IMG/VR virus record: IMGVR_UViG_3300037312_001491
Span: 1-64,000 of that record
Origin: a virus
Taxonomy: Duplodnaviria > Caudoviricetes
Reading direction: 5' to 3' (one strand)
DNA length: 64,000 bases
This document shows positions 9,489 through 57,488 of this stretch, one piece after another. A program made the position numbers and the translations under genes. Below the pieces are notes generated by a model. It worked only from the letters and a program-made list of their open reading frames with translations. It made no database searches and had not been told where the DNA came from. Within the stretch, counting starts at the first letter, position 1. Each line of letters opens with the position of its first letter.

Positions 9489-10102
9489 CCCTCGGCCTTG
9501 TCGGGCTTGTCGGCGTCGCCCGCCTTCTCGGCCGCCGCGGCCTTCGGCTTCTTCGTCTTCTTCGCGCGCAGCTCGGCGACCTCGTCGGAGAGCTTCTTCA
9601 CCTGCTCCTGGAGCGTCTTGCGCTCGGCGAGGAGCTGGTTCAGGCGCTCGTCGCCACCGCCGGCAGCGTCAAGCTGTTCCTGCATCGTGCGCAGGTCGTT
9701 GAGCGCCTCCGTAAGGAGGTTGAGCGCGAACGCGACAGGGTCGGCGTCGGTCTTCTCGTCCGCTAGGCCGAGCGCGCGGATGCCGACCGCGAGGTTGACG
9801 AGCGCGTCCGCGCCGCCATCTGGCAGCGCCACGACGGGCGGGATGCCCGCGGCGGCGACCTCTGCCTCGGACGCGAGCGGCGCCGGGAACTCGTCGACCA
9901 GCTCCACGTCCGCGGCCGTGGCGGTCACGAAGAGACCGTCCGAGCGCAGGATGAGGAACACGAACTCCTTGCCCGACATCTCGGTAGCGACGACGGCGCC
10001 CTCGCAGTCGACGGCCGGCTGGCCGGTCTGCTCGTTGAGGTGGCGCCAGCGGACGCGCGGGCCGGTGAGCACGAGACCCATCGAGATGGTGCCGGCGTTC
10101 AC
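9485..10102 (-). CDS. Hypothetical protein with C-terminal coiled coil and Lys/Ala tail
   Basis: Heptad-like segment LNDLRTMQEQL...LQEQVKKLSDEVAEL. Confidence 0.55.
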   Translation of the reverse strand: MNAGTISMGLVLTGPRVRWRHLNEQTGQPAVDCEGAVVATEMSGKEFVFLILRSDGLFVTATAADVELVDEFPAPLASEAEVAAAGIPPVVALPDGGADALVNLAVGIRALGLADEKTDADPVAFALNLLTEALNDLRTMQEQLDAAGGGDERLNQLLAERKTLQEQVKKLSDEVAELRAKKTKKPKAAAAEKAGDADKPDKAEG

Positions 10103-16621: not shown

Positions 16622-16709
16622 GGGAGCGCAGACCGGCGTGGCTCCGGGCCTGGCCGTAACCCAGGCTGCCTTCGGGCACAGGATGGTTCGATTCCGTCCG
16701 CTCCCACCA
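16622..16709 (+). tRNA. trnY: tRNA-Tyr(GTA), long variable arm
   Basis: GGGAGCG/CGCTCCC, CCTGG-CCGTAAC-CCAGG, CCA end. Confidence 0.8.
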
Positions 16710-16787
16710 CCCCCCTCTCACCCAGGGGACTGACAACTGAATAGCTGACGACGACGAGGTCGGGCCCGCGTGGGCTCGGCCATTCAC

Positions 16788-16861
16788 TCGGGGATCGTTC
16801 AATGGTAGGACGTCGGTTTCTGGAACCGGCTATCCAGGTTCGAGTCCTGGCCCCCGATCCA
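16788..16861 (+). tRNA. trnQ: tRNA-Gln(CTG)
   Basis: Loop TT-CTG-GA, T-arm CCAGG-TTCGAGT-CCTGG, CCA. Confidence 0.9.
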
Positions 16862-16862
16862 T

Positions 16863-16935
16863 GTCCCTCGCGTATGGCTGGTGCGTACGCCTGGTTGAAG
16901 CCCAGGAGGCTGAGGTTCGATTCCTCGGGGGGACA
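16863..16935 (+). tRNA. trnF: tRNA-Phe(GAA)
   Basis: CCTGG-TTGAAGC-CCAGG. Confidence 0.85.
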
Positions 16936-16940
16936 CGAGA

Positions 16941-17009
16941 GGGGAGGCGTGGGTCCGAATCCCACCGTCCGGCCTGGTGCCGGGCGAAGTGCTGCGGTGG
17001 CACGCCCCC
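16941..17009 (+). ncRNA. Circularly permuted tRNA-like element 1
   Basis: Closing stem, T-arm GTGGG-TCCGAAT-CCCAC, closed acceptor-like stem CGTCCGGC/GCCGGGCG, AA, D-like arm GTGC-TGCGGTG-GCAC. Confidence 0.6.
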
Positions 17010-17015
17010 GTTTTT

Positions 17016-17090
17016 GGGCCGCTAGCTCCAATGCAGAGCAACGGGTTCTTACCCCGCTGGTTCTGGGTTCAAGTCCCAGGCGACCCACCA
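17016..17090 (+). tRNA. trnK: tRNA-Lys(CTT)
   Basis: Loop TT-CTT-AC, CCA. Confidence 0.85.
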
Positions 17091-17100
17091 CGCGTTCGTC

Positions 17101-17175
17101 GAGTCCGCAGCTCTCAGGTAGAGCACGCGCCTTTTAAGCGAGGAGGTGCAGGTTCGACTCCTGCCGGACTCACCA
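17101..17175 (+). tRNA. trnK: tRNA-Lys(TTT)
   Basis: GAGTCCG/CGGACTC, loop CT-TTT-AA, CCA. Confidence 0.9.
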
Positions 17176-17282
17176 TAAGCCGACAGCGGCACCTGGTTGC
17201 CGGGCGCGCGATGACGATCGGCGCGCGAACGATGAAGCGCGGACCCAAGTCCGTCAGCCGAGTTGAACCAGGAGATCTTTCT

Positions 17283-17355
17283 GCGGCTGTGCCCAGGGTG
17301 GGCAGCGAGAGTGCCACTCTTGCCTCGGTGGGTTCGATCCCCATCGGCCGCTCCA
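17283..17355 (+). tRNA. trnG: tRNA-Gly(GCC)
   Basis: CGAGA-GTGCCAC-TCTTG, U73, CCA; short D-loop. Confidence 0.75.
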
Positions 17356-17356
17356 T

Positions 17357-17432
17357 TGTAGCCGAGGGTTCGATTCCCTCCCAAGGGAGCTGCGCAAGCA
17401 GCGCGACCGGGGCGTTAGGGTACGGGGCTACA
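17357..17432 (+). ncRNA. Circularly permuted tRNA-like element 2
   Basis: TGTAGCC/GGCTACA closing stem, T-arm GAGGG-TTCGATT-CCCTC, GCAA-capped stem GCTGC/GCAGC, D-like arm CGT-TAGGGT-ACG. Confidence 0.55.
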
Positions 17433-17436
17433 GCTT

Positions 17437-17511
17437 GCGGGTGTCGCGCTCAAGGTGAGCCAGCGGTCTTCCACACCGCCCAGGCGGGTCCGATTCCCGT
17501 CGCCCGCTCCA
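17437..17511 (+). tRNA. trnG: tRNA-Gly(TCC)
   Basis: GCGGT-CTTCCAC-ACCGC, U73, CCA. Confidence 0.85.
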
Positions 17512-17512
17512 C

Positions 17513-17586
17513 GCCGATGTAGCTCCGAGGTGGAGCAGTGGTCCCGTAAACCACCGGGCTGGGTTCGACTCCCAGCGTCGGCTCCA
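17513..17586 (+). tRNA. trnT: tRNA-Thr(CGT)
   Basis: GTGGT-CCCGTAA-ACCAC, CCA. Confidence 0.85.
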
Positions 17587-17588
17587 GT

Positions 17589-17661
17589 GCCCTCCAGGCG
17601 TCCGTGGGAACGCGCCGCACTTGTAATGCGGATGTGGCCGGTTCGACTCCGGCGAAGGGCT
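17589..17661 (+). tRNA. trnT: tRNA-Thr(TGT)
   Basis: CCGCA-CTTGTAA-TGCGG. Confidence 0.85.
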
Positions 17662-17666
17662 CCGAT

Positions 17667-17743
17667 GTATCCCTCGTATCTCTGGTGAGTACGGCGGCCT
17701 GTTAAGCCGAGAGAGCTGGGTTCGATTCCCAGGGGATACGCCA
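17667..17743 (+). tRNA. trnN: tRNA-Asn(GTT)
   Basis: GTATCCC/GGGATAC, loop CT-GTT-AA, G73, CCA. Confidence 0.85.
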
Positions 17744-17745
17744 AC

Positions 17746-17820
17746 GGCCCATGAGTCAGCTGGTGTGGACGGCAGCCTCTCAAGCTGTCGAGCCGGGATC
17801 GTAACCCGGATGGGTCACCA
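17746..17820 (+). tRNA. trnE: tRNA-Glu(CTC)
   Basis: GCAGC-CTCTCAA-GCTGT; atypical T-loop ATCGTAA; CCA. Confidence 0.85.
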
Positions 17821-17827
17821 AATTTTT

Positions 17828-17904
17828 GCCTCCGCAGCTCGACTGGATCGAGCACACGGCTACGGACCGTGGGGTTGCAGGTTCGACTCCTGCCGGAGGC
17901 GCCA
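17828..17904 (+). tRNA. trnR: tRNA-Arg(ACG)
   Basis: CACGG-CTACGGA-CCGTG, CCA. Confidence 0.9.
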
Positions 17905-17905
17905 T

Positions 17906-17980
17906 GGGATGCAGCGCGCGGGCCGCGCCGCCGGTCTCCAAAGCCGTGCAGAGAGGGTTCGATTCCCTCGCATCTCGCCA
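17906..17980 (+). tRNA. trnW: tRNA-Trp(CCA)
   Basis: Loop CT-CCA-AA, G73, CCA. Confidence 0.8.
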
Positions 17981-17981
17981 T

Positions 17982-18054
17982 CGCAGCGACCCAGGGCGCC
18001 GGAGCGGCCCATAACCGCCACCGCGTAGGGGTTCGAGTCCCCCCGCTGCGACCA
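17982..18054 (+). tRNA. tRNA(CAT), elongator Met or Ile2
   Basis: CGCAGCG/CGCTGCG, GCGG-CCCATAA-CCGC, CCA. Confidence 0.7.
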
Positions 18055-18055
18055 C

Positions 18056-18136
18056 GCGGGCTTGAGGTGGCGCCGCCGACGAGGTCTAGAACGACTCGGT
18101 GGGCGTTCGCCGGTGCGAATCCGGCGACCCGCTCCA
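18056..18136 (+). tRNA. Atypical tRNA-like gene, anticodon ambiguous (hairpin contains TCTAGAA)
   Basis: Acceptor GCGGGCT/GACCCGC plus TCCA and T-arm GCCGG-TGCGAAT-CCGGC present; D arm unclear, irregular extended anticodon arm. Confidence 0.5.
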
Positions 18137-18142
18137 ATTCAC

Positions 18143-18217
18143 AGAGGGATAGCCTACTGGGCAGGCGCTTGTTTCGGGAACAAGATCAGGCGGGTTCGAT
18201 TCCCGTTCCCTCTACCA
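18143..18217 (+). tRNA. trnP: tRNA-Pro(CGG)
   Basis: AGAGGGA/TCCCTCT, CTTGT-TTCGGGA-ACAAG, CCA. Confidence 0.85.
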
Positions 18218-18218
18218 C

Positions 18219-18294
18219 GCGGGGCAGCTCACCTGGCGGTGGGATCACTCCTACAAAATGACCGCGCAGAGTCCGATTCTCTGGCCCCGCACCA
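18219..18294 (+). tRNA. trnV: tRNA-Val(TAC)
   Basis: GCGGGGC/GCCCCGC, loop CC-TAC-AA, CCA. Confidence 0.8.
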
Positions 18295-18381
18295 TCCATG
18301 AACGCAGGCCCGCACAACTCCCCCGGACGCACGAGCGTCGCGAAAGTGGAGGCCATGCCGGGAAGGGCGCTGTGTTCACAT

Positions 18382-18455
18382 CCGTTGCTAGCTCAAAGCA
18401 GAGCGTCCGCTCGATAAGCGGAGGGTTGCAGGTGCGAGTCCTGCGCGACGGACCA
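18382..18455 (+). tRNA. trnI: tRNA-Ile(GAT)
   Basis: TCCGC-TCGATAA-GCGGA, CCA. Confidence 0.85.
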
Positions 18456-18536
18456 TGCGGGGAAGCGGAGCAGGTGCATGCCGCGGGGGGCTCATAACCC
18501 CCATTAGCCGGGTTCGAGTCCCGTGTCCCGCTACCA
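18456..18536 (+). tRNA. trnM: tRNA-fMet(CAT), initiator-like
   Basis: GGGGG-CTCATAA-CCCCC (consecutive G-C pairs), unpaired first acceptor position, ACCA end. Confidence 0.75.
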
Positions 18537-18600
18537 ACGCGAGCGACCCGCGCCCAGGTCGTGGCTAGCGCTCGCGCCGAGCGCCGACAACAGACGTCAT

Positions 18601-18676
18601 GGTGCCTATAGCTGTAGTGGTCGCACGGCGGATTGTGTCTCCGCAAGGGCGGGTTCGATTCCCGCTAGGTACCCCA
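18601..18676 (+). tRNA. trnH: tRNA-His(GTG)
   Basis: G-1:C73 pair, GCGGA-TTGTGTC-TCCGC, CCA. Confidence 0.85.
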
Positions 18677-18703
18677 CACACGTGCTAATCCAGGAGGAGA
18701 GTC

Positions 18704-19255
18704 ATGCAGGCCGAGAGCTTCGCGACGAACGAGCAGACCCTAGTCCTCGACCCTGGCATGCGCCCGGTCGAGGTCGTGCACTGGACGCGCGCCGTCGCGC
18801 TCTGGTTCCAGGACAAGGCGGAGGTCATCGCCGAGTACGATGGCTTCGCGCGCTCGTCCTCGCTGGTGATCAAGATCCCGGCTGTGGTTCGCCTCCTGCA
18901 TGCGTTCAAGCGCGACCGGAAGCCGGTCAAGTTCTCGCGCGTGAACATTTACGCCCGCGACGGCTACCGCTGCCAGTATTGCGGCGGCAAGTTCACGATG
19001 GGTGAGCTGACCTACGACCACGTTGTCCCCCGCTCGCGTGGGGGAAAGACGAGCTGGGAGAACATCGTGTCCGCGTGTCACGCATGCAACCGCCGCAAGG
19101 CGTGCCGCACGCCGGAGCAGGCGGGAATGAAGCTCCGCAAGGTGCCCGTGCAGCCGCAGGCCGTGCCGGTGCTCGTGATCCCGCTGTCGAGGAAGACCGT
19201 CCCCGACGCGTGGCGCGACTACCTGTACTGGACCGGCGAACTGGACCGGGACTGA
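18704..19255 (+). CDS. HNH endonuclease (tRNA-array associated type)
   Basis: FSRVNIYARDGYRCQYCG...TYDHVVPRSRGGKTSWENIVSACHACNRRK. Confidence 0.95.
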   Translation: MQAESFATNEQTLVLDPGMRPVEVVHWTRAVALWFQDKAEVIAEYDGFARSSSLVIKIPAVVRLLHAFKRDRKPVKFSRVNIYARDGYRCQYCGGKFTMGELTYDHVVPRSRGGKTSWENIVSACHACNRRKACRTPEQAGMKLRKVPVQPQAVPVLVIPLSRKTVPDAWRDYLYWTGELDRD

Positions 19256-19362
19256 TCGAAAAGCCGTAGCGCGTCCGCAAAGCGCGTGAAGGCACGGCGC
19301 ACGAGGGGCAACCCGACCGCAGAAGCGGAGCCGCAACGGCCCTCCAGTGGGCCTCGTGTTTT

Positions 19363-19436
19363 GGTCCTGATTTCACCGGGTGGTGATGCGCCGCTGTCTA
19401 CGGCGTCGAGGAGGGGTTCGAGTCCCCCCAGGACCG
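19363..19436 (+). tRNA. trnD: tRNA-Asp(GTC)
   Basis: GGTCCTG/CAGGACC, CGCCG-CTGTCTA-CGGCG, G73. Confidence 0.85.
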
Positions 19437-19441
19437 CGAAT

Positions 19442-19513
19442 GGGCGCGTAGCTCAACGGGTGAGCGCTCCGCTGGCTGCGGAGAGGTTGCGGGTTCGAGT
19501 CCCGCCGTGTCCA
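19442..19513 (+). tRNA. trnA: tRNA-Ala(GGC)
   Basis: G3:U70 pair, CTCCG-CTGGCTG-CGGAG. Confidence 0.9.
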
Positions 19514-19519
19514 CGAAAC

Positions 19520-19594
19520 GGGGCCGTCATTCTAACGGGAAGATTCCTGGTCCGCACCCAGGCGATGTCGGTTCGATTCCGACCGGTTCCACCA
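19520..19594 (+). tRNA. trnA: tRNA-Ala(CGC)
   Basis: G3:U70 pair, CCTGG-TCCGCAC-CCAGG, CCA. Confidence 0.85.
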
Positions 19595-19595
19595 C

Positions 19596-19670
19596 GCCGA
19601 TGCAGCTCCTCTGGCGGAGCACTCGCCCGGTACGCGAGAGGGTCGGGTTCGAGTCCCGACGTCGGCTCCA
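19596..19670 (+). tRNA. trnT: tRNA-Thr(GGT)
   Basis: CTCGC-CCGGTAC-GCGAG, CCA. Confidence 0.85.
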
Positions 19671-19677
19671 GTTTCGA

Positions 19678-19752
19678 TCGGGGTTCGTCTAATCGGTAGG
19701 ACGGCGGACTTTGGATCCGCCTATGAGGGTCCGAGTCCCTCGCCCCGAACCA
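19678..19752 (+). tRNA. trnQ: tRNA-Gln(TTG)
   Basis: GCGGA-CTTTGGA-TCCGC, CCA. Confidence 0.9.
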
Positions 19753-19753
19753 C

Positions 19754-19826
19754 GCGCCGGTGGTCGAATGGAAAGGCACGGAGCTGCAACCTCCGCACAT
19801 CGCGAGTTCGATTCTCGCCCGGCGCT
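19754..19826 (+). tRNA. trnC: tRNA-Cys(GCA)
   Basis: CGGAG-CTGCAAC-CTCCG, U73. Confidence 0.9.
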
Positions 19827-20227
19827 CAAAGTAGTCCGTGATCAAATTCCCAATGGTGGTTCGGACACAAGAAGCGAATGTTCGAGCGCGCGTTCACCTC
19901 GACGAGTGGTGTGCTGTCGGGGAACGTGCTCAGCGCGACAACGTGACAGACCTCGACGTGCTTTGAGTAACCGCAGACCTCACATGATGCGCGCAGTCGC
20001 TCTGTGCGGTGCGTGGTGCGCGCTCGTTCTCGCACGTACGCGTGAAGCCAGGACGGATGACGGCCACGAAGGGACAAGAGGCGTCGCACGTCTCCGATTG
20101 TGATCACCCGGATGCTGTCGAGGCGGCGCTCTCGGCAATCAGAGCAGAACTCGGAACGATACTTGTTCTTCGCGATCTGCCAGGTCGCGCCACAGTTCTT
20201 GCAGCTTCGGATATGGGGCTGCCGCAT
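19826..20227 (-). CDS. HNH endonuclease-family protein, antisense inside tRNA array
   Basis: CKNC..FCSDC N-terminus; CEVCGYSKHVEVCHV...SNIRFLCPNHHWEFDH. Confidence 0.8.
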   Translation of the reverse strand: MRQPHIRSCKNCGATWQIAKNKYRSEFCSDCRERRLDSIRVITIGDVRRLLSLRGRHPSWLHAYVRERARTTHRTERLRASCEVCGYSKHVEVCHVVALSTFPDSTPLVEVNARSNIRFLCPNHHWEFDHGLL

Positions 20228-20267
20228 CTCGAAAGTCTTACGCCGCGAGATGCACCCGAACTTCCTT

Positions 20268-20344
20268 GTTCCCGTCGCCTCGCAGGATGAGGTACCGCAC
20301 TCCTAATGCGGATAGTGCAGGTTCGAGTCCTGCCGGGGACACCA
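20268..20344 (+). tRNA. trnR: tRNA-Arg(CCT)
   Basis: CCGCA-CTCCTAA-TGCGG, CCA. Confidence 0.9.
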
Positions 20345-20345
20345 C

Positions 20346-20417
20346 GGTTCCGTGACAGGATGTCGACCCGACGATCCGAACGTCGGCGGCCGGGTTCGAG
20401 TCCCGGCGGAATCACCA
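20346..20417 (+). tRNA. trnR: tRNA-Arg(CCG), 6-bp anticodon stem and small D arm
   Basis: GGTTCCG/CGGAATC, CCGACG-ATCCGAA-CGTCGG, CCA. Confidence 0.7.
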
Positions 20418-20419
20418 AC

Positions 20420-20497
20420 GGCCGCGCGGCAAACTGCTGGTGTGGTAGCCGGCTTTTCACCCCGGTGCTTCGGGTTCGATTCCCGCCGCGGTCACCA
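20420..20497 (+). tRNA. trnE: tRNA-Glu(TTC)
   Basis: Loop TT-TTC-AC, GGCCGCG/CGCGGTC, CCA. Confidence 0.75.
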
Positions 20498-20510
20498 TCG
20501 TCGTCAGCTT

Positions 20511-20598
20511 GGCGTCGGAGAGGGCAACAGGTGCCCTACCGGTCTCGAAAACCGGGTGCCCCGAAAGGGGCCGGGTTCAACCCCTAACGGCGCCGCCA
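20511..20598 (+). tRNA. trnS: tRNA-Ser(CGA), long variable arm
   Basis: CCGGT-CTCGAAA-ACCGG, GCCCC-GAAA-GGGGC arm, G73, CCA. Confidence 0.8.
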
Positions 20599-20599
20599 T

Positions 20600-20683
20600 G
20601 GAAGGACAGCCGGTGCAGGTGCCCGGAGCCGTTTGCTAAACGGATGTGCCCGCAAGGGTCGGGTTCGAGTCCCCGTTCTTCCG
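20600..20683 (+). tRNA. trnS: tRNA-Ser(GCT), long variable arm
   Basis: GGAAGGA/TTCTTCC, loop TT-GCT-AA, GCCC-GCAA-GGGT arm, G73. Confidence 0.8.
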
Positions 20684-21916
20684 CTACTTCTTCGGTGGGT
20701 GGTCCGTCGTCGCCGGCAGCGCCGCCCAGCGTGACAACGCGATCTCTTCGGGCGTGACGGCGCCGGCAGCCATCGCCAGTGCGTCGGCGCGCGCGAGGTC
20801 GAGGCGCGCCTGCGCCAGCTCGCCGGCCTTCGCGCTCGTCTCCCATGTGCCGCCAAGGGGGCGGTCCCACTCGGGTAGTGGGATCGCGATGCAGTAGAAG
20901 TGGCCGCGCACCGGCACGTTGATCAGCAGGCGCGTCCCGCCGAAGTGCACGCGCACATCGATGGCGGCCTCGCTCGCGGTGTCCTTGTCGAACTGCTCGC
21001 CCACGAGCTTGTGCGCCAGCTCCATCGCCAGCCGGTCGTAGTCGATGGACGGCGCGCGGCTCGCGACGGCGCGTTCGACGCAGCGGCCGATGCGGCGCAG
21101 CTTCTCCTGCGGCGTCTCGACGAACACGTCGACGGCGATGCCGGCGGGCCGGCAGGGCTCGATGGCTGCACGCACGCGGCGCTCCCAGCGCCAGTCGACG
21201 TTGTCGTCACCCTCGGTGATGACGATGCGGACGTCGCCGGGCTGCGGCTCCTTGACCTCGACCTCGCGCACACCGGGGACCATCTTCGCCATCACGGCGA
21301 GCTGGGTGCGCGTGCAGTTGCGGTAGAACAGCGCCAGGTCTTCGTGGTCGTTGTGGTAGCCGTTCGGTGTCTTGCCGAGCAGGATGAACTCGGGGATGCC
21401 GTAGATGCCGGCAATCTTCCGGGTGAAGTCGTTCATCAACTCAGGAAGCCCCGCGAGAGGCGACGAGCCCCAGAGGCCGAGCCGGTCCAGAAGCTGCGGT
21501 ACCGTCGGTCCGTGGTCGACCGTGAGCAACGCGGCGTCGCGCGCGCTCGCGTGGACGTTGATGGCGATCTTCACCTCGGCGTCCGGCGGCACGTCGTGGT
21601 CACAGTCGACCCGCAGGACCGTCTTGCCCTCGGCGTCGATGAACAGCATGTGACGGACGGCGGCCGACTCGGCGGCCCGGAACTTGACGACGTCCACGAT
21701 GCCGTCCCAGGGCACACGCCGCGCGTCGCGGCCGTCTCGCGTGCGCAGGACGATGGCGACCACGCGCCGGCGGAGCTGGCACGGGCGGCACGCGCAGTTC
21801 ACGACGTGACCGGGCTCACCCCGGTGACGCGGGGGGACCGCGCCGTCGCAGCCGAGCGCGCACTGGACGTACGCGCCGATGACGGGGATGCCGGGGTGGC
21901 CGCAGGGGGCGTTCAC
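20684..21916 (-). CDS. Chimeric protein containing a portal-like segment and a baseplate-J-like segment
   Basis: PLAGLPELMNDFTRKIAGIYGIPEFILLGKTPNG aligns with this phage's portal; MVPGVREVEV...PCRPAGIAVDV resembles baseplate J C-terminus. Confidence 0.6.
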   Translation of the reverse strand: MNAPCGHPGIPVIGAYVQCALGCDGAVPPRHRGEPGHVVNCACRPCQLRRRVVAIVLRTRDGRDARRVPWDGIVDVVKFRAAESAAVRHMLFIDAEGKTVLRVDCDHDVPPDAEVKIAINVHASARDAALLTVDHGPTVPQLLDRLGLWGSSPLAGLPELMNDFTRKIAGIYGIPEFILLGKTPNGYHNDHEDLALFYRNCTRTQLAVMAKMVPGVREVEVKEPQPGDVRIVITEGDDNVDWRWERRVRAAIEPCRPAGIAVDVFVETPQEKLRRIGRCVERAVASRAPSIDYDRLAMELAHKLVGEQFDKDTASEAAIDVRVHFGGTRLLINVPVRGHFYCIAIPLPEWDRPLGGTWETSAKAGELAQARLDLARADALAMAAGAVTPEEIALSRWAALPATTDHPPKK

Positions 21917-22232
21917 GCGGAGGTGACGCGCCGAGCGGCCGCGGGAATTCCTGCCAGAGCAGTTGCTCCATCAGGGCCCGCGCGCGCTTGCTCGGGGCCT
22001 TCGTCAGGAAGCCGCGCGCGACCCCATTCTCGTACGGGGGCGGCTTGCGGAACTGTGCGGCGGTCGGGTCGAGCACGTGCGGCGCGATGCCGTCGGACCC
22101 GCTGTCGAGCACGAGGTACCAGTGGACGTCGCCCTCGTGTCGGACGGTGTGCGGCGTGTAGCCGGCGGCCTTGCCACCGAGCAGGTGGTAGAGCGCCTCG
22201 CAGGTGACGTAGCAGTTGCCGCGGCGCCTCAT
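21816..22232 (-). CDS. Conserved phage protein (GNCYVTCEALYHLLGG...GFLTKAPSKRA)
   Basis: Recognisable motif set CYV.CEALYH, HWYL, LDPTAAQF, GFLT.PSKRA. Confidence 0.6.
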   Translation of the reverse strand: MRRRGNCYVTCEALYHLLGGKAAGYTPHTVRHEGDVHWYLVLDSGSDGIAPHVLDPTAAQFRKPPPYENGVARGFLTKAPSKRARALMEQLLWQEFPRPLGASPPRERPLRPPRHPRHRRVRPVRARLRRRGPPASPG

Positions 22233-30683: not shown

Positions 30684-31154
30684 ATGACCAAGACCCAGAC
30701 CACGCGCGTCGCTGACGCGTCCCCCGCCCCGAAGGGCGGCGTGACCATCTTCTCTGCGAAGGACGCGGCCGCGGCCGCGCGTCCGTTCATGCGGCTCGAC
30801 GAGCAGGAGACTCTCGTCGTGCTGCACCTCGACGTGCACAACAAGGTGATCGGGGATCCGCGCATCGCGGCCATCGGCACCATGACGAGCGTCGAGTGTC
30901 ACCCACGCGACGTGTTCCGTGCCGCCATCGCGACCAACGCGGCCGCTGTCGTCGTGCTCCACAACCACCCGGTCGGCGACCCGACGCCGAGCGACGCGGA
31001 CATCGGCGTCACCCAGCGGCTCCTCGCCGCGGGCATCGCGCTCGGTATTCCGGTCCTCGACCATGTAGTCGTGACGGCCGACAACCACGTGTCGATCCGC
31101 GAGCAGGGCGGTGGCGGTGTGGCCTACGAGCGCGTGCCGGAGGTGACGCTGTGA
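30684..31154 (+). CDS. radC: RadC-like JAB domain protein
   Basis: EQETLVVLHLD...HPRDVFRAAI...VVLHNHPVGDPTPSDAD...LDHVVV. Confidence 0.92.
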   Translation: MTKTQTTRVADASPAPKGGVTIFSAKDAAAAARPFMRLDEQETLVVLHLDVHNKVIGDPRIAAIGTMTSVECHPRDVFRAAIATNAAAVVVLHNHPVGDPTPSDADIGVTQRLLAAGIALGIPVLDHVVVTADNHVSIREQGGGGVAYERVPEVTL

Positions 31155-33316
31155 AGCCCAACCAGGAAGTTCAGACCGTCGCCACGAGCGCGACAGCGTC
31201 GGCGTCGTTCGGCATCTCGCGCGCGGACGAGGCCCACATCATGGGCATCCTGCGCAGCACCCTCTACTCCGACAAGATCCTCGCGGTCCTGCGCGAGTAC
31301 GGCGCGAACGCGTGGGACGCCCACCGCTCCGTCGGCCGCGGCGATGTCCCCATCGAGGTGACGTTGCCGACGTACGACGCGCCCGTCCTGCGCATCCGCG
31401 ACCGCGGCCCCGGCCTGTCGCGCAACGAGGTGTTCACCGTCTACACCCAGTACGGCGCGAGTAGCAAGCGCGACGACGACAACGCGGTCGGCATGCTCGG
31501 TATCGGCTCCAAGTCGGGCTTCTCGTACGCGAGCAGCTTCACGATCACGAGCTGGCACGCCGGCACCAAAGCGATCTACGTCGCGGCGCTCGACCCGAGC
31601 AACCGCGGCCTCATCAACCTCATCCACGAGCAGTGCCTGTGCTGCGAACGCCCCGTCGGCACGAAGAAGGACGAGGCCGACGAGACGGTCTACTGCGAGT
31701 GCACCGCGCGGCTCGCGCCCGAGACCGGCATCGAGATCCAGATCGTCGTGAAGCCGGCCGACGTCGACAAGTTCGAGGAGCGCGCCGAGCGGCTGTACGT
31801 CCACTTCGAGCCGCGTCCGACCATCAACATCCAGCTCCCTCCGCCCCCCGAGGGCGGGCTCACGAACGAGCATGGAACCATCCGTCCAGGTGGCCACGGT
31901 GACTGGGTTGCGGTGATGGGCTGCGTGCCGTACCGCATCCGCCTGGGCGAGCTGGACCTGTGCGCCGAGCACCAGTGCCTGCACAACCTGTCCGGCATCA
32001 TCCGGTTCGGCATCGGCGACGTGCAGATCGCCGCCTCGCGCGAGGACCTCGACTACACCGACGCGACGCGCGCCGCCATCACGGCGAAGTTCACGGAGCT
32101 GGTCGACGCGTTCGTCACGCAGTCGGTCGCCGAGCTGGAGGCGATGAGCCTGTGGGACCGGCGCCTCCGCGCGCAGGTGCTCAGCAACCTTGGTATCACC
32201 CTGCCGGCCGAGTACGGCGAAATCGCCAAGGGCTGGGTGAAGTTGTTCGAGCCGAGCGACGACGGCGTGCCGTTCCGCATGTGGCACGTCAGCGAGCAGA
32301 CCAGCCAGATCCAGGTCGAACCGGACACGCGCATCTACATCGACGACACCGGCAAGCTCCTCAAGGGCTACGCCCGCTCGATGGAGCGGCACTACTACGT
32401 GGTGCGCGCCAAGACGCGCGGCATGTCGTACGACGACCTCAAGGCCGTCGTCGACGAGCACATCAACGCGTGCCTCGTCACCGGCATCCCCATCCATCGG
32501 CTCTCCGAGCTGCACTGGGACTCGACCGCCAGCTCGCGTGGCGGCCGCTCGTGGGGTGCCGACAAGAGCAAGCACAAGGCGTCGATGTTCGTCCTCGACC
32601 CCGAGGCGCAGTTCAAGCACCCGTTCTCCAACGCGTGGTCGACGGTGACGCGTGTCCCCGAGGACACCGACGTGTTCGTCATCCTGGAGAACTTCAAACC
32701 CAACGGGGTCGACTCGTTCTTCCTGGAGTACCGCGACGACCGCGTGCTCGCCGAGGCGTTCGGCGTCGAGATGCCGCAGGTCTACGGGTACAAGTCGACG
32801 ACGAAGAAGACCGTCCGCCCGTCTGACTGCAAGGGGCTCACGTACGACGCGTGGCGCAAGCAGTTCATCAAGGACCTCGGCACGCCCGAGCGCCTCGCCG
32901 AGATCTCCGAGATGTGGTGGGGGCACGTGCTCCGCTACACGGCCGACAGGTACGACCGCAAGTTTCTGCGCGAGCAGCTCGGCCGCGACCACGCCGTCGT
33001 CCGCCTCGTCTCTCGGTGCGCACACGCCGACAGCATGAAGAACCGGGACGCGCTGCTCGCGCTCGCGACTCGGCTTGGCATCGCGAAGGACACGTCGGCC
33101 GCGCACGCGGCACTCGAAGAGATCCTCAACCGCTACCCGCTGCTCCGGTGCAGCGACTACGGCGTCCGGTCGCTGTGGTTGAACTACACCCGGAACCACC
33201 GCAACGAGTGGTGCAAGTACGTACGCCTCGTTGACGAAAGCCTAAATCGTACCCAGACTGTCGACACCAAGAAAGGAACCGCCACCGATGCAGCCGATTC
33301 CGTACAGCCTGTCTAA
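31151..33316 (+). CDS. rIIA: rIIA-like protein (GHKL ATPase N-terminus)
   Basis: LYSDKILAVLREYGANAWDAH, IRDRGPGLS, YGASSKR...GMLGIGSKSGFSY. Confidence 0.9.
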   Translation: MKPNQEVQTVATSATASASFGISRADEAHIMGILRSTLYSDKILAVLREYGANAWDAHRSVGRGDVPIEVTLPTYDAPVLRIRDRGPGLSRNEVFTVYTQYGASSKRDDDNAVGMLGIGSKSGFSYASSFTITSWHAGTKAIYVAALDPSNRGLINLIHEQCLCCERPVGTKKDEADETVYCECTARLAPETGIEIQIVVKPADVDKFEERAERLYVHFEPRPTINIQLPPPPEGGLTNEHGTIRPGGHGDWVAVMGCVPYRIRLGELDLCAEHQCLHNLSGIIRFGIGDVQIAASREDLDYTDATRAAITAKFTELVDAFVTQSVAELEAMSLWDRRLRAQVLSNLGITLPAEYGEIAKGWVKLFEPSDDGVPFRMWHVSEQTSQIQVEPDTRIYIDDTGKLLKGYARSMERHYYVVRAKTRGMSYDDLKAVVDEHINACLVTGIPIHRLSELHWDSTASSRGGRSWGADKSKHKASMFVLDPEAQFKHPFSNAWSTVTRVPEDTDVFVILENFKPNGVDSFFLEYRDDRVLAEAFGVEMPQVYGYKSTTKKTVRPSDCKGLTYDAWRKQFIKDLGTPERLAEISEMWWGHVLRYTADRYDRKFLREQLGRDHAVVRLVSRCAHADSMKNRDALLALATRLGIAKDTSAAHAALEEILNRYPLLRCSDYGVRSLWLNYTRNHRNEWCKYVRLVDESLNRTQTVDTKKGTATDAADSVQPV

Positions 33317-34586
33317 CGACGTCCTGACCGTCACGGTCGAGGGCTCACCCAAGTTCGTCCGCAAGGGTGCCTCCGAGTTCGAGGCCCTGCGCGCCGCGCT
33401 CATCGCCGAGGACTGGGACACCGCGCACTCCTTGCTCAAGCCGGGAGGGGGCGTCGCGCACTACCTCGCGGCCCACAACACCGTCGCCGGTATCGCGCAG
33501 TTCCAGCTGCGCGACGGCCAGCTCTACTTCAACGACGAGCGGGTCCACCCCAACGTCGCTTCGCGCATCGACCGCATGGCGGCCTCTGGCGAGGACCCGA
33601 CGCCGGTGATCCGCTTCTACGAGCGTCTCCAGCAGAACCCGAGCAAGCGGTCCGTCGACCAGCTGTTCGACTTCCTCCAGCACCTCGGCCTGCCGTTCGA
33701 GGCGGACGGCACGTTCCTCGCGTACAAGGGCGTCAACGACGACCTGTCCGACAAGTACACCGGCCGCATCTTCAACACGCCGGGTGCGGTCATCAAGATC
33801 AACCGCAACCTCGTGTCGGACGACCCGCGCACGCCCTGCCACGAGGGACTCCACGTCGGCGCCCACGCGTACGCGAGCACGTTCGCCTCGACCACCATCG
33901 CGGTGCGCGTCGACCCCAAGAACGTCGTCTGCGTGCCGTACGACTCTAGCAGCCAGAAGATGCGCGTCTGCGAGTACGAGGTCATCGGCCTCCACTCGGG
34001 TGAGCTGATGCCGAACAACACGATCCCGGCCGCGGACGTGCCGGCGAAGTCCACCGCAGCGAACCTCGCGCCGTGCGCGAATTGCGGTATCCAGACGCAC
34101 GCGGTGGAGAACTTCTGCCACGGCTGCAAGCAGGTCGTGTGCAACGACTGCGACCAGGACCACGACCGCGCGATGGGCCCGCACGAGCTGAGCGACCACC
34201 TGACCCTCGACTCGCCGGCGGCCGACAGCCGCAAGGGCGAGATCGACCCGGAGTACGAGAACGTCGCGGAGACGGTCGACGCCGTCACCGTCGCGAACGA
34301 GCCGGCGGTCGAGGCGTTCACCGGCGAGCAGCTCGACCAGGCCGTCACCGAGCACGCGCACGAGGCCGAACAGGCCAAGAAGTTTCGTCAGTTCAAGAAG
34401 TTGACGACGCGCCAGCTCCTGGAGCAGACGCTGACCGACCTCCGCGAGTACGCCCTCAAGCTCAAGATCGTCGGCTCGGGGCACATCAAGGGCGGCAAGA
34501 CGGCCCTGGTGCCCCACATCGTCAAGGCACGCAGCCTGGCGAACCGCAAGCGCCTCAAGGTGCGCGGCAAGAAGGCCCGGAAGTAG
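33288..34586 (+). CDS. rIIB: rIIB-like protein with zinc-finger and C-terminal extension
   Basis: NPSKRSVDQLFDFL...DGTFLAYKGV...RNLVSDDPRTPCHEGLHVG...VDPKNVVCVPYD...KMRVCEYEV. Confidence 0.9.
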   Translation: MQPIPYSLSNDVLTVTVEGSPKFVRKGASEFEALRAALIAEDWDTAHSLLKPGGGVAHYLAAHNTVAGIAQFQLRDGQLYFNDERVHPNVASRIDRMAASGEDPTPVIRFYERLQQNPSKRSVDQLFDFLQHLGLPFEADGTFLAYKGVNDDLSDKYTGRIFNTPGAVIKINRNLVSDDPRTPCHEGLHVGAHAYASTFASTTIAVRVDPKNVVCVPYDSSSQKMRVCEYEVIGLHSGELMPNNTIPAADVPAKSTAANLAPCANCGIQTHAVENFCHGCKQVVCNDCDQDHDRAMGPHELSDHLTLDSPAADSRKGEIDPEYENVAETVDAVTVANEPAVEAFTGEQLDQAVTEHAHEAEQAKKFRQFKKLTTRQLLEQTLTDLREYALKLKIVGSGHIKGGKTALVPHIVKARSLANRKRLKVRGKKARK

Positions 34587-35564: not shown

Positions 35565-38309
35565 ATGGCCGACGAGAAGTCCGGGCGCACGAAGCGAGGC
35601 ACGTTTGCACCTGGCACCTCCGGCAACCCCAGCGGCAGGGCGAAGCCCCGAACCGACGCCGCGCCGGTTACCAGGCTGGACGGCTGGCAGAACTTCTTCT
35701 CCGGCCATGGTGTCTACGGCCGCGACAAGCGCCAGGGGACGAGCTTCAAGGCCGCCACCCTGACGTTCGACCAGCTCGCCGAGCTGTGGCGCGGCGACGA
35801 CCTCGCGGCACGCGCCGTCGAGACGCTGCCGAAAGAGTCTCTCCGCGAGGGTTACGATCTGTCGATCCCCGAGGCGGCGCTGGGTGGCGAGGACGAGGCC
35901 GAGCGCATCGCCGAGATCGTCGACGCCCTGTCGACACTGGGGGCGGACGAGACGATCCGTACCGGCCTCTGCTACGAGCGTGGCCTAGGTGGTGGCGCCG
36001 TCCTCATCGGCGCGAACGACGGCCAGGACGACCTGACCAAGCCGCTGCGCCTCGAATCCATCCGTTCGCTCGACTGGCTGACCCCGCTCGAACCGCGCGA
36101 GATCATGCCGGTGTACGGCTACGCCGACCCGCGCGCCCCGAAGTACGGCCAGCCCGAGATCTACCGCATCACGAGCCGCACCATCCTGCCACCGCAGGAT
36201 GGCAAGTACGGCAACCAGGTGATGGACATCCACGAGTCGCGGCTCCTGGTGTTCCCCGGCATCCGCGTCAGCCGCTACCAGTACATGGCCTCCCAGGGCG
36301 GTTGGGGTGACTCGGTGCTCATCCGCATGTGGCGCGTGCTCCGCGACTTCAACCTCGCGTGGGGCTCCGCCGGCGCGCTCGTCACCGAGTTCGCCTCGGC
36401 GACGTACAAGATGAAGGACCTGTGGACGGCGCTGTCGACGAAGGGCGGCGCGCAGGCGTTCGCCGAACGCCTCCAGGCGATGGACCTGGCACGGTCGACC
36501 ATCAACGCGACTGTCATCGACGGCGACGACGACTTCAAGCGCGAGCAGACGCCGATCTCCGGCCTGCCCGACCTCATGGACAAGTTCTCGACGCGCCTCG
36601 CGGCGGCCGCGGACATGCCGCTCACGCTCCTGTTCGGCACGAGCCCGGCGGGCCTCAACGCCACCGGCGAGTCTGACATTCGCTTCTTCTACGACCGCGT
36701 CGCCGCGTTCCAGCGCGACAAGGTGCTGCCGCAGCTCAAGACGCTGATCCGGATTCTGTTCCGCACACTCGGCTCAAAGGTGGAGCCCGAGAAGTGGGAC
36801 GTCGAGTTCCGTCCACTGTGGCAGGAGAGCGCCAAGGACAAGGCCGCCGCGATGCTCACGCAGGCGCAGGCCGACCACATCTGGGTCACCGACGGCATGC
36901 TGTCGGCCGAGGAGGTGGCGGACGCACACTGGGGCACCGGCAAGTGGGTCCCCGACCTCCGCGTCGACTTCGAGGCGCGCGAGCGCCAGGAGGCTGCGGC
37001 CGCCGCGCCGGTCACGCAAGCTGACTTCGCGGCGATGGGTCGCGGCCCCAACGGCCAGCCGCTCCAGCCAATGCCGGGCCAGCGCCAACTCCAGCCGGGC
37101 CCCGCGCAGTTCGGTCGCCCGCAGCCGCAGCCTGGCTTCGGACAGCCGGTGCAGCGCCAGCTCCAGCCCGGCCCGGCGATGCCAGGTCAGAAGCCGGTCC
37201 CTGGCCAGCAGTCACCCGGTCAGGCGCCAGGCGCGGCCGCCGCTCAGGGTGCCGCCCCCGGCGCAGCTCCGGGCGCGAAGGCGTCGAAGCTCGGCGCCAG
37301 CGGCTACCGCTACGCACCGGACGTCACCCAGCGTGGCCAGGGGGCCGACGACGACATCGACCGCAAGCCGCGCTCGATGGTGCTGTCGAACGACGCCGAC
37401 GACCGTCCGCAGCTCAGCGTGGTGCGCGAGGACGTGATCGAGCATGCGTCCGACGGATGGCACGTCTACTCCGAGACCGAGCCGCGCAAGCATCTCGGCG
37501 GCCCGTACCAGACGAAGGAAGGCGCGATTGAACGACTGCGCCAGGTCGAGGGCCACGCCCGTGACGACAGCTTCAACCCGGACCAGCCACGCGCCGAGAA
37601 TGGCGAGTGGGGCGAGGGCGGCGCCGGTGGCGCGCACCCGAGCGCACCGACGTCCGGCGAGCACGCCGCAGCGCAGGGCACCTCGTTCGAGCAGGCCGTC
37701 CACGCGGTCTCAGCCGGCGAGAAGCACGGCATGACCGCCGAGCACTTCAAGGCGCTCGTCGAGAGGAAGAAGGCGGAGTCCGACGCGCACAAGAACGCGG
37801 TCCAGGCGTTCGCCGCCAAGCTCACGCCGATCGAGACGCAGGTCTCCAATGGCTACGGCGTGTTCGGAGAGGTCGTCAACGGTGCACTCCGCGCCGGTCG
37901 CCCGCCCAGCTCGGCCGACGAGAAGGCCGCGATCGGTGCGCTCGATAGTGCCATCAGGAAGTCGAAGGCGCCGGCCGACATGATCGTGTACCGCGGCATC
38001 CACAGTGACCGGGACCCGATGGCCAAGCTCAAGCCCGGTGTCGTCATCCGCGACAAGGGTTACGTGTCGACGACAGGTTCCCGAGACATTGCGGCCGAGT
38101 TCGCGCACCGGGAACACACCGGCAAGCTCGATCCGTCGTCCACGAGCGTCATCGTGAGGATCAAGGTTCCCAAGGGCCACCCAGCCGCGCCGATTCCGTC
38201 GACGTACCGGTTCGAGCACGAGTACCTCCTGCCTCGCGGCAGCAAGTTCAAGATCACCTCGGTCGCGAAAGAGGGCGGGGACACCGTCGTCGAAGCGGAG
38301 GCCCTGTGA
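35565..38309 (+). CDS. Portal protein (DUF1073 type) fused to Q/P/G linker, small domain and C-terminal VIP2-like ADP-ribosyltransferase
   Basis: DGWQNFFSG, ARAVETLPKESLREG, YGQPEIY, IHESRLLVFPG, GWGDSVL, GLNATGESDIRFFYD; C-terminus YRG...GYVSTT...EHEYLLPRGSKFKI (R-S-E triad). Confidence 0.9.
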   Translation: MADEKSGRTKRGTFAPGTSGNPSGRAKPRTDAAPVTRLDGWQNFFSGHGVYGRDKRQGTSFKAATLTFDQLAELWRGDDLAARAVETLPKESLREGYDLSIPEAALGGEDEAERIAEIVDALSTLGADETIRTGLCYERGLGGGAVLIGANDGQDDLTKPLRLESIRSLDWLTPLEPREIMPVYGYADPRAPKYGQPEIYRITSRTILPPQDGKYGNQVMDIHESRLLVFPGIRVSRYQYMASQGGWGDSVLIRMWRVLRDFNLAWGSAGALVTEFASATYKMKDLWTALSTKGGAQAFAERLQAMDLARSTINATVIDGDDDFKREQTPISGLPDLMDKFSTRLAAAADMPLTLLFGTSPAGLNATGESDIRFFYDRVAAFQRDKVLPQLKTLIRILFRTLGSKVEPEKWDVEFRPLWQESAKDKAAAMLTQAQADHIWVTDGMLSAEEVADAHWGTGKWVPDLRVDFEARERQEAAAAAPVTQADFAAMGRGPNGQPLQPMPGQRQLQPGPAQFGRPQPQPGFGQPVQRQLQPGPAMPGQKPVPGQQSPGQAPGAAAAQGAAPGAAPGAKASKLGASGYRYAPDVTQRGQGADDDIDRKPRSMVLSNDADDRPQLSVVREDVIEHASDGWHVYSETEPRKHLGGPYQTKEGAIERLRQVEGHARDDSFNPDQPRAENGEWGEGGAGGAHPSAPTSGEHAAAQGTSFEQAVHAVSAGEKHGMTAEHFKALVERKKAESDAHKNAVQAFAAKLTPIETQVSNGYGVFGEVVNGALRAGRPPSSADEKAAIGALDSAIRKSKAPADMIVYRGIHSDRDPMAKLKPGVVIRDKGYVSTTGSRDIAAEFAHREHTGKLDPSSTSVIVRIKVPKGHPAAPIPSTYRFEHEYLLPRGSKFKITSVAKEGGDTVVEAEAL

Positions 38310-56132: not shown

Positions 56133-57488
56133 GTGGCGACCACCTACGGGCTCACCGACCTCGGTCTCGTCATCAAGACGCTGACCATCATCCGCGCCGA
56201 CCTCGAAGCGGCGATGCGCGCGGCCTTCGGCGCATCGCTCAAGCTCGGCGATACGACACTGCTTGGCCAGATCTGCGGCATCATGGCGGAGCGGTACGCG
56301 GAGCTATGGGCACTCCTCGCGGCGGTCTATGCGTCGCAGGACCCGAACGCGGCGACCGGCCTGTCACTCGACAACGTCTCGGCGATCACCGGCACGACCC
56401 GTCCACCGGCGTCGTACTCGACCGTCACACTGACCGGCACCGGCACCCCGAGCACGGTGGTCCCGGCGTCGACGCAGGTCGAGACGGCGAGCACGGCCAT
56501 CAAGTTCACGACGACCGCGGACGAGACGCTGGTCGCTGTGTCGGCGTGGGCGGCCAACCACACGTACGTCATCGGCGACCGCGTGACGAACGGCGGCAAC
56601 GTCTACCAGTGCACCATCGCCGGCGTCAGCGCCAGCTCGGGTGGGCCGAGCGGCACCGGCACGGCCATCGTCGACAACTTCGCAACATGGGCGTACGTCG
56701 GTGCGGGCACCGCGGCTGCGGACATTGCCGCACGCGCCGTCGACACCGGTGACATCGCGGCGGCCGCCGGTGACCTCACGGTCATCGACACACCCGTCGC
56801 CGGCCTGTCGAACATCACGAACCTGCTCGATGCCGCGCGCGGCCGCGACGTCGCCACGGACGAGGAGCTGCGCCTGCTCCGCGAGGCCGAGCTGTCTGGT
56901 GATGGCGTCAGCACCGAGGACGCCATCGAGGCGGCCGTCCTCCAGATCGCCAACGTCGTCGCGTGCACGGTCTACGTCAACGACACCGACACGACGAATG
57001 TGGACGGCATGCCGCCTCACTCCGTCGAGGTCGTCGTCCTCGGCGGCGCCGATCAGGACATCGCCAACACGCTGTTCGCCGAGGTCGCCGCCGGCATCGC
57101 GACGCACTCGTCCAGCTCGAACTCGGCCACGGTCGTCGACAGTCAGGGCGTCTCGCACACCATCTACTTCACGCGGCCGGCGCAGATCCTCGTCTACGTC
57201 GACCTGACACTGACCTACGACGCCGAGCTGTACCCGTCGGACGGCGACGCGGAGATCCAGGCCGCCATCACGGCGTTCGGCGCGAAGTTCCCGTCCGGCA
57301 AGAACGTGACGTCGTCCGGCGTCGGTGCACAGGCGTTCTCGGTGCCCGGTGTGCTCGACGTCACCCCGGTCTACATCGGCACGTCCCCGAGTCCGGGCTC
57401 CAGCGCGACCATCGCCGTGTCCACGCGGCAGCTCGCCGTGTTCGACACCAGCCGCATCAACATCCACTCCAGCGCGGCCACCCCATGA
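56133..57488 (+). CDS. Baseplate J-like protein with inserted carbohydrate-binding-like module
   Basis: AVYASQDP..ATGLSLD, GRDVATDEELR, GMPPHSVEVVVLGG; insert WAANHTYVIGDRVTNGGNVYQC. Confidence 0.9.
   Translation: MATTYGLTDLGLVIKTLTIIRADLEAAMRAAFGASLKLGDTTLLGQICGIMAERYAELWALLAAVYASQDPNAATGLSLDNVSAITGTTRPPASYSTVTLTGTGTPSTVVPASTQVETASTAIKFTTTADETLVAVSAWAANHTYVIGDRVTNGGNVYQCTIAGVSASSGGPSGTGTAIVDNFATWAYVGAGTAAADIAARAVDTGDIAAAAGDLTVIDTPVAGLSNITNLLDAARGRDVATDEELRLLREAELSGDGVSTEDAIEAAVLQIANVVACTVYVNDTDTTNVDGMPPHSVEVVVLGGADQDIANTLFAEVAAGIATHSSSSNSATVVDSQGVSHTIYFTRPAQILVYVDLTLTYDAELYPSDGDAEIQAAITAFGAKFPSGKNVTSSGVGAQAFSVPGVLDVTPVYIGTSPSPGSSATIAVSTRQLAVFDTSRINIHSSAATP

Follow-up and report, generated by a model that had tools for sequence, protein, structure and literature searches.

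Portal proteins of the PF06381 family (Phage_portal_3, formerly DUF1073), for which the portals of cyanophage Pam3 (PDB 8hds) and Pseudomonas phage E217 (gp19, PDB 8fvh) are the solved relatives of the portal treated here, and the wedge proteins of the Baseplate J, T4 gp6 and Mu gp47 type (PF04865; 8v3w_E, 9ki1_H, 6u5b_m and 3h2t) are the described proteins closest to the product of a gene that we examined in a 64,000-nucleotide stretch of viral DNA (the window), the first 64 kb of the 88,095 bp IMG/VR record IMGVR_UViG_3300037312_001491, which is judged complete. With a G+C content of 67.6%, the window codes for rIIA, rIIB, portal, head protease, major capsid, tail sheath, tape measure and baseplate J proteins, and it belongs to a contractile-tailed phage because it holds tail sheath, tape measure, baseplate J and other such genes. 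The gene in question (20684..21916, minus strand; 410 codons plus stop, GTG start), here called the accessory gene, encodes a 410-residue five-part chimera that comprises a Cys/His knuckle with a beta-sandwich, a first stretch of portal likeness (piece A), a baseplate-J-type alpha/beta domain, a second alpha+beta domain (C1) and a second stretch of portal likeness (piece B).

With the PF06381 portals, the accessory protein shares two collinear stretches in which the invariant residues are mostly retained, but it has only ca. 105 of the ca. 450 portal core residues, lacks the clip, the N-terminal wing and the wing helix, scores below the family threshold and is encoded outside the head module. 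With the Baseplate J proteins, it shares the alpha/beta domain at residues 200-267 but not the remaining Baseplate J architecture, and its gene lies outside the baseplate module as well. The protein is therefore neither a portal nor a baseplate J, as the Pfam threshold and the genomic context both fail in each case. Another relative is PHROG 12751, a family of unknown function whose 283-position profile hits the portal in its C-terminal half (E 2e-33) and also hits piece A (E 1.1e-6), so that portal-half proteins exist in cultured phages; it differs from the accessory protein in sharing only 56 positions and in having neither the zinc domain nor the baseplate-J-type module. In the libraries searched, we found neither a described family for the carrier domain at the N-terminus nor a description of the chimera.

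A five-part chimera with two stretches of portal likeness

The preliminary description of this gene, made without database searches, had reported that residues 153-198 (encoded at 21323-21460, minus strand) align almost without gaps to residues 330-376 of this phage's own portal (36552-36692). These coordinates are correct and the alignment holds, with BLASTP pairing residues 152-198 of the accessory protein and residues 329-376 of the portal at 17/48 identities (35%) with one gap (E 2e-7). Piece A as a whole spans residues 150-204 (21305..21469, minus strand) and is homologous to portal residues 327-383 (36543-36713, plus strand), within a portal gene (35565..38309, plus strand) that encodes a PF06381 core fused to a C-terminal ADP-ribosyltransferase (Pfam E 1.4e-83 and 9.3e-17). 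Profile searches, suggested as a check at the time, returned significant portal likeness. Pfam Phage_portal_3 matches the accessory protein at E 4.4e-6 (26.1 bits, under the gathering score of 33.8) over only positions 248-305 of its 357, PHROG 146 (portal) matches at E 4.9e-8, and profile-profile comparison of piece A by hhalign (three orthologues against six portals) gives a probability of 98.3% and an E value of 1.4e-14. In a phmmer search over 1.8 billion representative proteins, the only matches outside the protein's own family were portals (E 2.8e-4 to 8.6e-4), five of which were verified to be such. All four orthologous proteins contain the core motif R-L-A-A-A..P..L-L-x-G..P-x-G, and most positions that are invariant in the six portals (G333, L337, P352, L356, G358, G363 and D371) are retained in piece A.

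The earlier observation thus stands and is stronger than first noted. It had missed what by sequence is a second, collinear portal piece: piece B, at residues 349-398 (20723..20872, minus strand), is homologous to portal residues 410-457 (36792-36935, plus strand) and is followed by a conserved tail of 12 residues. BLASTP aligns it to the own portal at E 6e-4 and to another portal, P0071, with 46% identity at E 4e-8, and the library-wide phmmer search also matched it to portals (P0071 and P0075). Both pieces follow the order of the portal, in which they are separated by 33 residues as compared to ca. 150 in the accessory protein. AlphaFold2 models the pieces with low confidence (predicted local distance difference test, pLDDT, of 44-73 in the region of piece A) and confident domains alongside, for a whole-protein mean of 80.6.

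Between the two pieces lie the baseplate-J-type domain at residues 200-267 (21116..21319, minus strand) and C1 at residues 268-348 (20873..21115, minus strand), with a pLDDT of 83-96 across residues 200-350 and of 80-96 in C1. The segment following piece A had been said to resemble the C-terminal domain of baseplate J. A likeness to baseplate J is borne out by fold and only marginally by sequence, but the part that is matched is the central alpha/beta domain and not the C-terminal one. On the sequence level, Pfam Baseplate_J (PF04865) reaches no more than E 0.019 and 14.7 bits against a cut-off of 21.1. By fold, the six best matches of residues 200-267 among 48,161 PDB representatives (VIA-align) are all baseplate J homologues, namely those of diffocin, phiCD508, Mu, Klebsiella phage KP1, the Streptomyces coelicolor contractile injection system and pyocin R2, with Z scores of 8.3-9.8, a root-mean-square deviation of 1.6-2.2 A over 66-67 residues and 17-27% identity; generic ferredoxin-like domains come next at Z < 8, and T4 gp6 (3h2t) lies below these six at Z 6.7. 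The top matches in BFVD are likewise XkdT/Mu-gp47 and baseplate J proteins (probability 1.0), and their alignments of ca. 181 columns may cover both the baseplate-J-type domain and C1, which otherwise has only generic fold matches (Z ca. 7). Foldseek comparison of the whole model to the PDB gave weak, poorly superposed matches to uS3 and pantothenate synthetase. The phage's own baseplate J (56133..57488, plus strand; Pfam Baseplate_J E 2.8e-13) is not the source of the module: BLASTP finds no significant match between it and the accessory protein, and hhalign sets the family's module on its residues 262-326 only at E 0.14. The module is no recent copy of the own baseplate J.

The N-terminal domain (residues 1-145; 21482..21916, minus strand; pLDDT 88.9) consists of a Cys/His cluster followed by a beta-sandwich. 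At E values of 1e-29 to 1e-10 in phmmer, 59 representative clusters match this domain (E <= 1e-10), and C5, C19, C23, H37, C41, C43 and C46 are invariant in a 60-member alignment. The cluster is probably zinc-binding; in the accessory protein, it is followed by R-R-R. When 67 family members were scanned with Pfam and PHROG, no family was matched over the N-terminal domain, which defines an undescribed phage protein family of ca. 60 clusters. Many members continue with the baseplate-J-type module, whose motif they share, and C1, which accompanies the baseplate-J-type domain throughout the family; the N-terminal domain, the module and C1 together are the ancestral core of the family. Modelled alone, the N-terminal domain has no fold match above Z 7.0. 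Its top match is a protein of 110 residues from the connector (collar/whisker complex) of phages Sf14 and Bas63 (9c39_K and 9mt4_K; Z 6.8-7.0 over 85 residues, 19-20% identity), which lacks the Cys/His cluster, is tied with unrelated PRMT beta-barrels within chance range, and matches the family profile only weakly (E 0.03-0.29).

The start of the domain also occurs elsewhere. An IMG/VR scan with the alignment of the N-terminal domain found only eight small proteins that share its first 25-residue Cys knuckle and not the domain. On these eight phage contigs (L012-L019, at positions ca. 10001-10100), the family's first 25 residues head small, otherwise unrelated Cys-rich proteins with the shared motif A-P-C-G-H-x-G-E..I-G-x-Y-V-x-C-x-x-G-C, which looks like a mobile zinc-knuckle mini-module.

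Coding status, selection and origin of the portal pieces

Codon composition, relatives and selection show that the accessory open reading frame (ORF) is a real, functional and fast-evolving gene. Its G+C content by codon position is 0.73/0.48/0.92, with third-position G+C (GC3) of at least 0.86 in each run of 50 codons, whereas a 435-codon ORF that overlaps it in antisense has a reversed, non-coding pattern with a GC3 of 0.68 in its own frame. Intact orthologues, four in number, span 36-74% identity; the three in public assemblies are P0004 (contig L001, 72%), P0005 (L002, 70%) and a more distant one at L005:1857-2909 that is 36% identical overall and 350 residues long from its GTG start. The start and the N-terminus are conserved in these three, and the 410-codon reading is confirmed by all orthologues beginning with the same N-terminus. 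Beyond this circle, tblastn of the accessory protein against 50,697 deposited phage genomes gave no match, searching IMG/VR with the three close orthologues found none either, and the ESM Atlas gave no usable match for residues 1-140 or the whole protein.

Across pairs of close orthologues, the ratio of non-synonymous to synonymous substitution rates (dN/dS) is 0.42-0.51 for the whole accessory gene. When the window phage is compared to its sister phage in L001, the whole gene has a dN of 0.18 and a dS of 0.40 (ratio 0.46), distributed unevenly over the N-terminal domain (0.11 and 0.43, ratio 0.25), piece A (0.34 and 0.60, 0.57), the baseplate-J-type domain (0.13 and 0.30, 0.43), C1 (0.31 and 0.28, 1.1) and piece B (0.13 and 0.39, 0.35). 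The portal core (residues 1-470) has a dN of 0.026 and a dS of 0.23 (0.12) for the same pair, and the portal stretch matching piece A has 0.008 and 0.15 (0.05), so that non-synonymous change in the accessory gene is ca. 7 times faster than in the portal core. Over three pairs, the ratio ranges from 0.57 to 0.98 for piece A and from 0.57 to 1.1 for C1. For piece B it is 0.24-0.35; in window-versus-sister comparisons, the N-terminal domain and piece B together cover 0.21-0.35. Piece B is thus clearly under purifying selection. At greater depth, it is C1 that diverges fastest, with only 18% identity to the L005 orthologue as compared to 38% for the baseplate-J-type domain and 41% for piece A, which is retained over this long divergence and hence not free to decay.

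The earlier wording of a "copy" of this phage's portal did not survive, as piece A resembles five foreign PF06381 portals no less than the own one. With 35-44% identity to portals, the pieces are an old acquisition from the PF06381 family. We considered and rejected recent gene conversion from the own portal, because identity is only at this level and the DNA alignment has no segment of elevated identity; the sister phage leads to the same conclusion, with 98% identity in its portal segment and yet divergent accessory pieces. The contig with P0004 also carries the portal of this sister phage (P0077, L011), so that both genes can be compared within one phage pair: the portal core is 96% identical and the stretch matching piece A 98%, whereas piece A itself is only 61% identical. 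Piece A diverges while the portal stretch stays, and it is therefore not a faithful mimic of the own portal.

Piece A was found only in the window's clade and in the L005 orthologue (2 of ca. 60 clusters). Comparison of 19 family members outside the clade with portals by hhalign gave only a spurious match of 15 columns, and piece A being ancestral to the whole family was rejected, as it is not detectable in these 19. Since the pieces are confined to one small clade of a wider family, they were grafted onto an existing protein with a zinc domain and a baseplate-J-type module; piece A took the place of the linker, and piece B was either added at the C-terminus or lost in the L005 lineage. As to whether homologues keep the same fragments, as had been asked earlier, the answer is mixed: all orthologues have piece A (with an 18-residue deletion in P0005), but the L005 orthologue lacks piece B and most members of the wider family have no portal piece. 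Likewise, the idea of a mosaic of virion-protein parts is upheld by the portal pieces and the baseplate-J-type fold, but the portal part is no copy of the own portal and piece A does not track it, and the module belongs to the ancestral core of the family and does not derive from the own baseplate J.

What the portal pieces might do

Our preferred, though tentative, reading of the sequence is that the accessory protein acts by portal-subunit mimicry on a partner that binds portals. From its position in the profile, piece A would run from the last part of the stem helix through the tunnel-loop region into the beginning of the wing helix, and piece B would belong to the crown, while the baseplate-J-type module occupies the place of ca. 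33 portal residues that, by position, should be the wing helix. We propose mimicry because the retained pieces would then be channel-side portal elements that contact other subunits: they would correspond to those parts of the portal that lie closest to the channel, at the contacts between neighbouring subunits. The accessory protein might thus dock onto a partner that normally touches these stem-helix, tunnel-loop and crown elements, with the N-terminal and baseplate-J-type domains supplying an oligomerisation or effector role. This partner could be portal protomers, either the phage's own or those of a competitor, or another portal-binding factor, and docking would either aid assembly or block something. 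The low model confidence of the pieces fits elements that fold only within an assembly. Candidate partners are directly testable (portal, packaging motor, competitor phage or host sensor), and if the pieces are functional, the protein would be a natural case in which fragments of a phage's assembly machinery have been put to new use outside the virion genes, in a non-structural protein.

Several points weigh against portal-subunit mimicry. Stem, tunnel loop and crown were assigned from profile position and general portal topology, as the structure papers on Pam3 and E217 list no residue ranges for the portal domains. Most family members have no portal piece, so the basic function of the family needs none, and piece B is found only in the window's clade, as the L005 orthologue does not have it. 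Among close orthologues, piece A varies more than any other part of the protein, its non-synonymous change is ca. 40 times that of the matching portal stretch for one and the same phage pair (dN 0.34 vs 0.008), and it has lost 18 residues (a third) in P0005; given that the own portal is nearly invariant, such fast change and deletion are unexpected for an element that has to fit it. A narrower form of portal-subunit mimicry, which we regard as rather unlikely, is that the pieces, displayed on a scaffold of zinc domain and baseplate-J-type module, let the protein slot into or cap portal rings, possibly those of co-infecting competitors, or bind to a host factor recognising a short portal motif. 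Competitor portals as targets would explain why the pieces diverge while the own portal stays fixed, and if mimicry directed at competitors or host factors were true, the protein would stand for a new class of phage proteins that are made of virion-protein fragments and serve in interference or counter-defence.

It is also possible, if somewhat doubtful, that the pieces are exapted filler, relics of an old recombination that serve as linker or oligomerisation helices in a protein whose role is that of its family and unrelated to the portal, maybe in host takeover or nucleic-acid-related and linked to the tRNA array. The prevalence of family members without a portal piece, the variability of piece A (with its dN/dS of 0.57-0.98 and the deletion in one orthologue) and the low model confidence of both pieces would all agree with this, and so would the Cys/His cluster followed by R-R-R. 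The family gene also faces or adjoins a tRNA array in the window and at five of six other loci (L001, L002, L005, L008 and L010), an adjacency that persists even at ca. 30% protein identity and may reflect either a functional link or mere gene order inherited among related phages. Similarly, Foldseek detects a weak likeness of residues 200-349 to two-domain RNA-binding proteins (such as uS3 and KhpB, E ca. 4e-3), yet baseplate J proteins match this fold better. Purifying selection on piece B (dN/dS 0.24-0.35), the survival of the core motif of piece A in an orthologue of only 36% identity and the collinearity of both pieces with the portal, which would be unlikely for random filler, speak against relics without a portal-related role. 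If the pieces are only relics, they would provide a clean, datable example of in-frame domain shuffling involving structural and accessory genes.

We consider it unlikely that the protein forms part of the virion despite its gene lying outside the late module, as an accessory protein assembled from structural-protein modules that is associated with the neck or vertex and attaches near the portal. Each recognisable part does have virion affinity (the portal pieces, the baseplate-J-type domain and the N-terminal beta-sandwich with its similarity to the Sf14/Bas63 connector), and one family member, P0021, is encoded directly upstream of head genes in the same orientation. Structural genes outside their module also occur in other phages, e.g., in Bas63 (PMC12609058), which sets a precedent. 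However, the matches of the N-terminal domain are within chance range (Z < 8), and in the window and at four other loci the gene has small non-structural neighbours and lies on the strand opposite to the structural operon. The channel and crown elements of portals are buried or face the capsid interior and are thus no obvious attachment sites. The fast evolution of the accessory gene as compared to the portal core likewise argues against a part of the virion.

Still less probable is the proposal of the preliminary description that the protein is an immune decoy or inhibitor whose portal pieces engage a portal-recognising host sensor to blunt or titrate it. Portal-sensing defences do exist in the form of Avs4 and Avs11 (bioRxiv 10.64898/2026.01.04.697583), and both the fast evolution of the gene and its site outside the structural operon, in a leftward block of small genes with putative early expression, would fit an arms race. 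Yet Avs sensors reportedly enclose the entire fold of their target via broad interfaces (bioRxiv 10.64898/2026.01.04.697583), so that a piece of ca. 50 residues cannot supply the target, and the accessory protein holds no more than ca. 55 + 50 of ca. 450 portal core residues. A decoy of the own portal should moreover carry a copy matched to the own portal segment, whereas piece A does not track this nearly invariant stretch (98% identity of the portal segment vs 61% of piece A between sister phages), and one orthologue even lacks a third of it. No defence or anti-defence gene was found linked to the accessory gene at the loci inspected, though no PADLOC search was made. Finally, a decaying pseudogene or a chance antisense ORF, akin to the unexpressed remnant that had been allowed for earlier, is refuted by the GC3 contrast between the two frames, the intact orthologues, a dN/dS below 1 and the confidently modelled domains, even though long spurious ORFs are common at 68% GC and the gene does overlap one of 435 codons.

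Gene neighbourhood and the C-terminus of the portal

As described previously for this gene, it lies outside the structural module and on the opposite strand, ca. 14 kb from the true portal gene, which precedes the protease and capsid genes. It is the final gene of a leftward block of small genes (among them an L5 gp82-like, a helix-turn-helix and a DUF3846 gene), and its stop codon abuts the final tRNA of a rightward tRNA array (16622..20684, plus strand) that runs head-on toward its 3' end; ARAGORN found 28 tRNA genes in the window. A carrier family of this size that has no Pfam or PHROG match and sits beside large tRNA arrays represents unannotated phage biology in its own right. Two HNH endonuclease genes lie within the array (18704-19255, plus strand, and 19826-20227, minus strand), and HNH genes also adjoin the tRNA arrays in L008 and L010. 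On the other side, the accessory gene shares its initial 100 nt, in a different frame, with an upstream ORF at 21816-22231 (minus strand) that has a weak YunG-like match (E 0.008). The gene upstream in L001 and L002 terminates with a 4-nt overlap of the start codon of the accessory gene, and the longer overlap in the window may be due to a frameshift or to a different gene.

Directly upstream of the portal gene, where the terminase is usually encoded, the window has rIIA- and rIIB-like genes at 30896-34586 (plus strand), and a large terminase gene was not identified among the window ORFs scanned. The portal itself carries a C-terminal ADP-ribosyltransferase domain (PF03496) that is 73% identical between the sister phages as compared to 96% for the core. 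Portals P0079-P0095, with cores that are 60-72% identical, have a C-terminal RelA_SpoT (PF04607), PI3/PI4-kinase (PF00454), Zeta toxin (PF06414) or PF18823 domain instead, so that the C-terminus of these portals looks like a swappable effector slot. The 664-residue protein encoded downstream of the portal contains three copies of the short motif (D/E)-P-R-x(3)-G-K-W, each succeeded by a run of glycines (38390-38428, 38885-38923 and 39524-39562, plus strand), and a variant is found in the C-terminal linker of the portal around residue 675; the motif could be a shared tag or processing signal of head-internal proteins.

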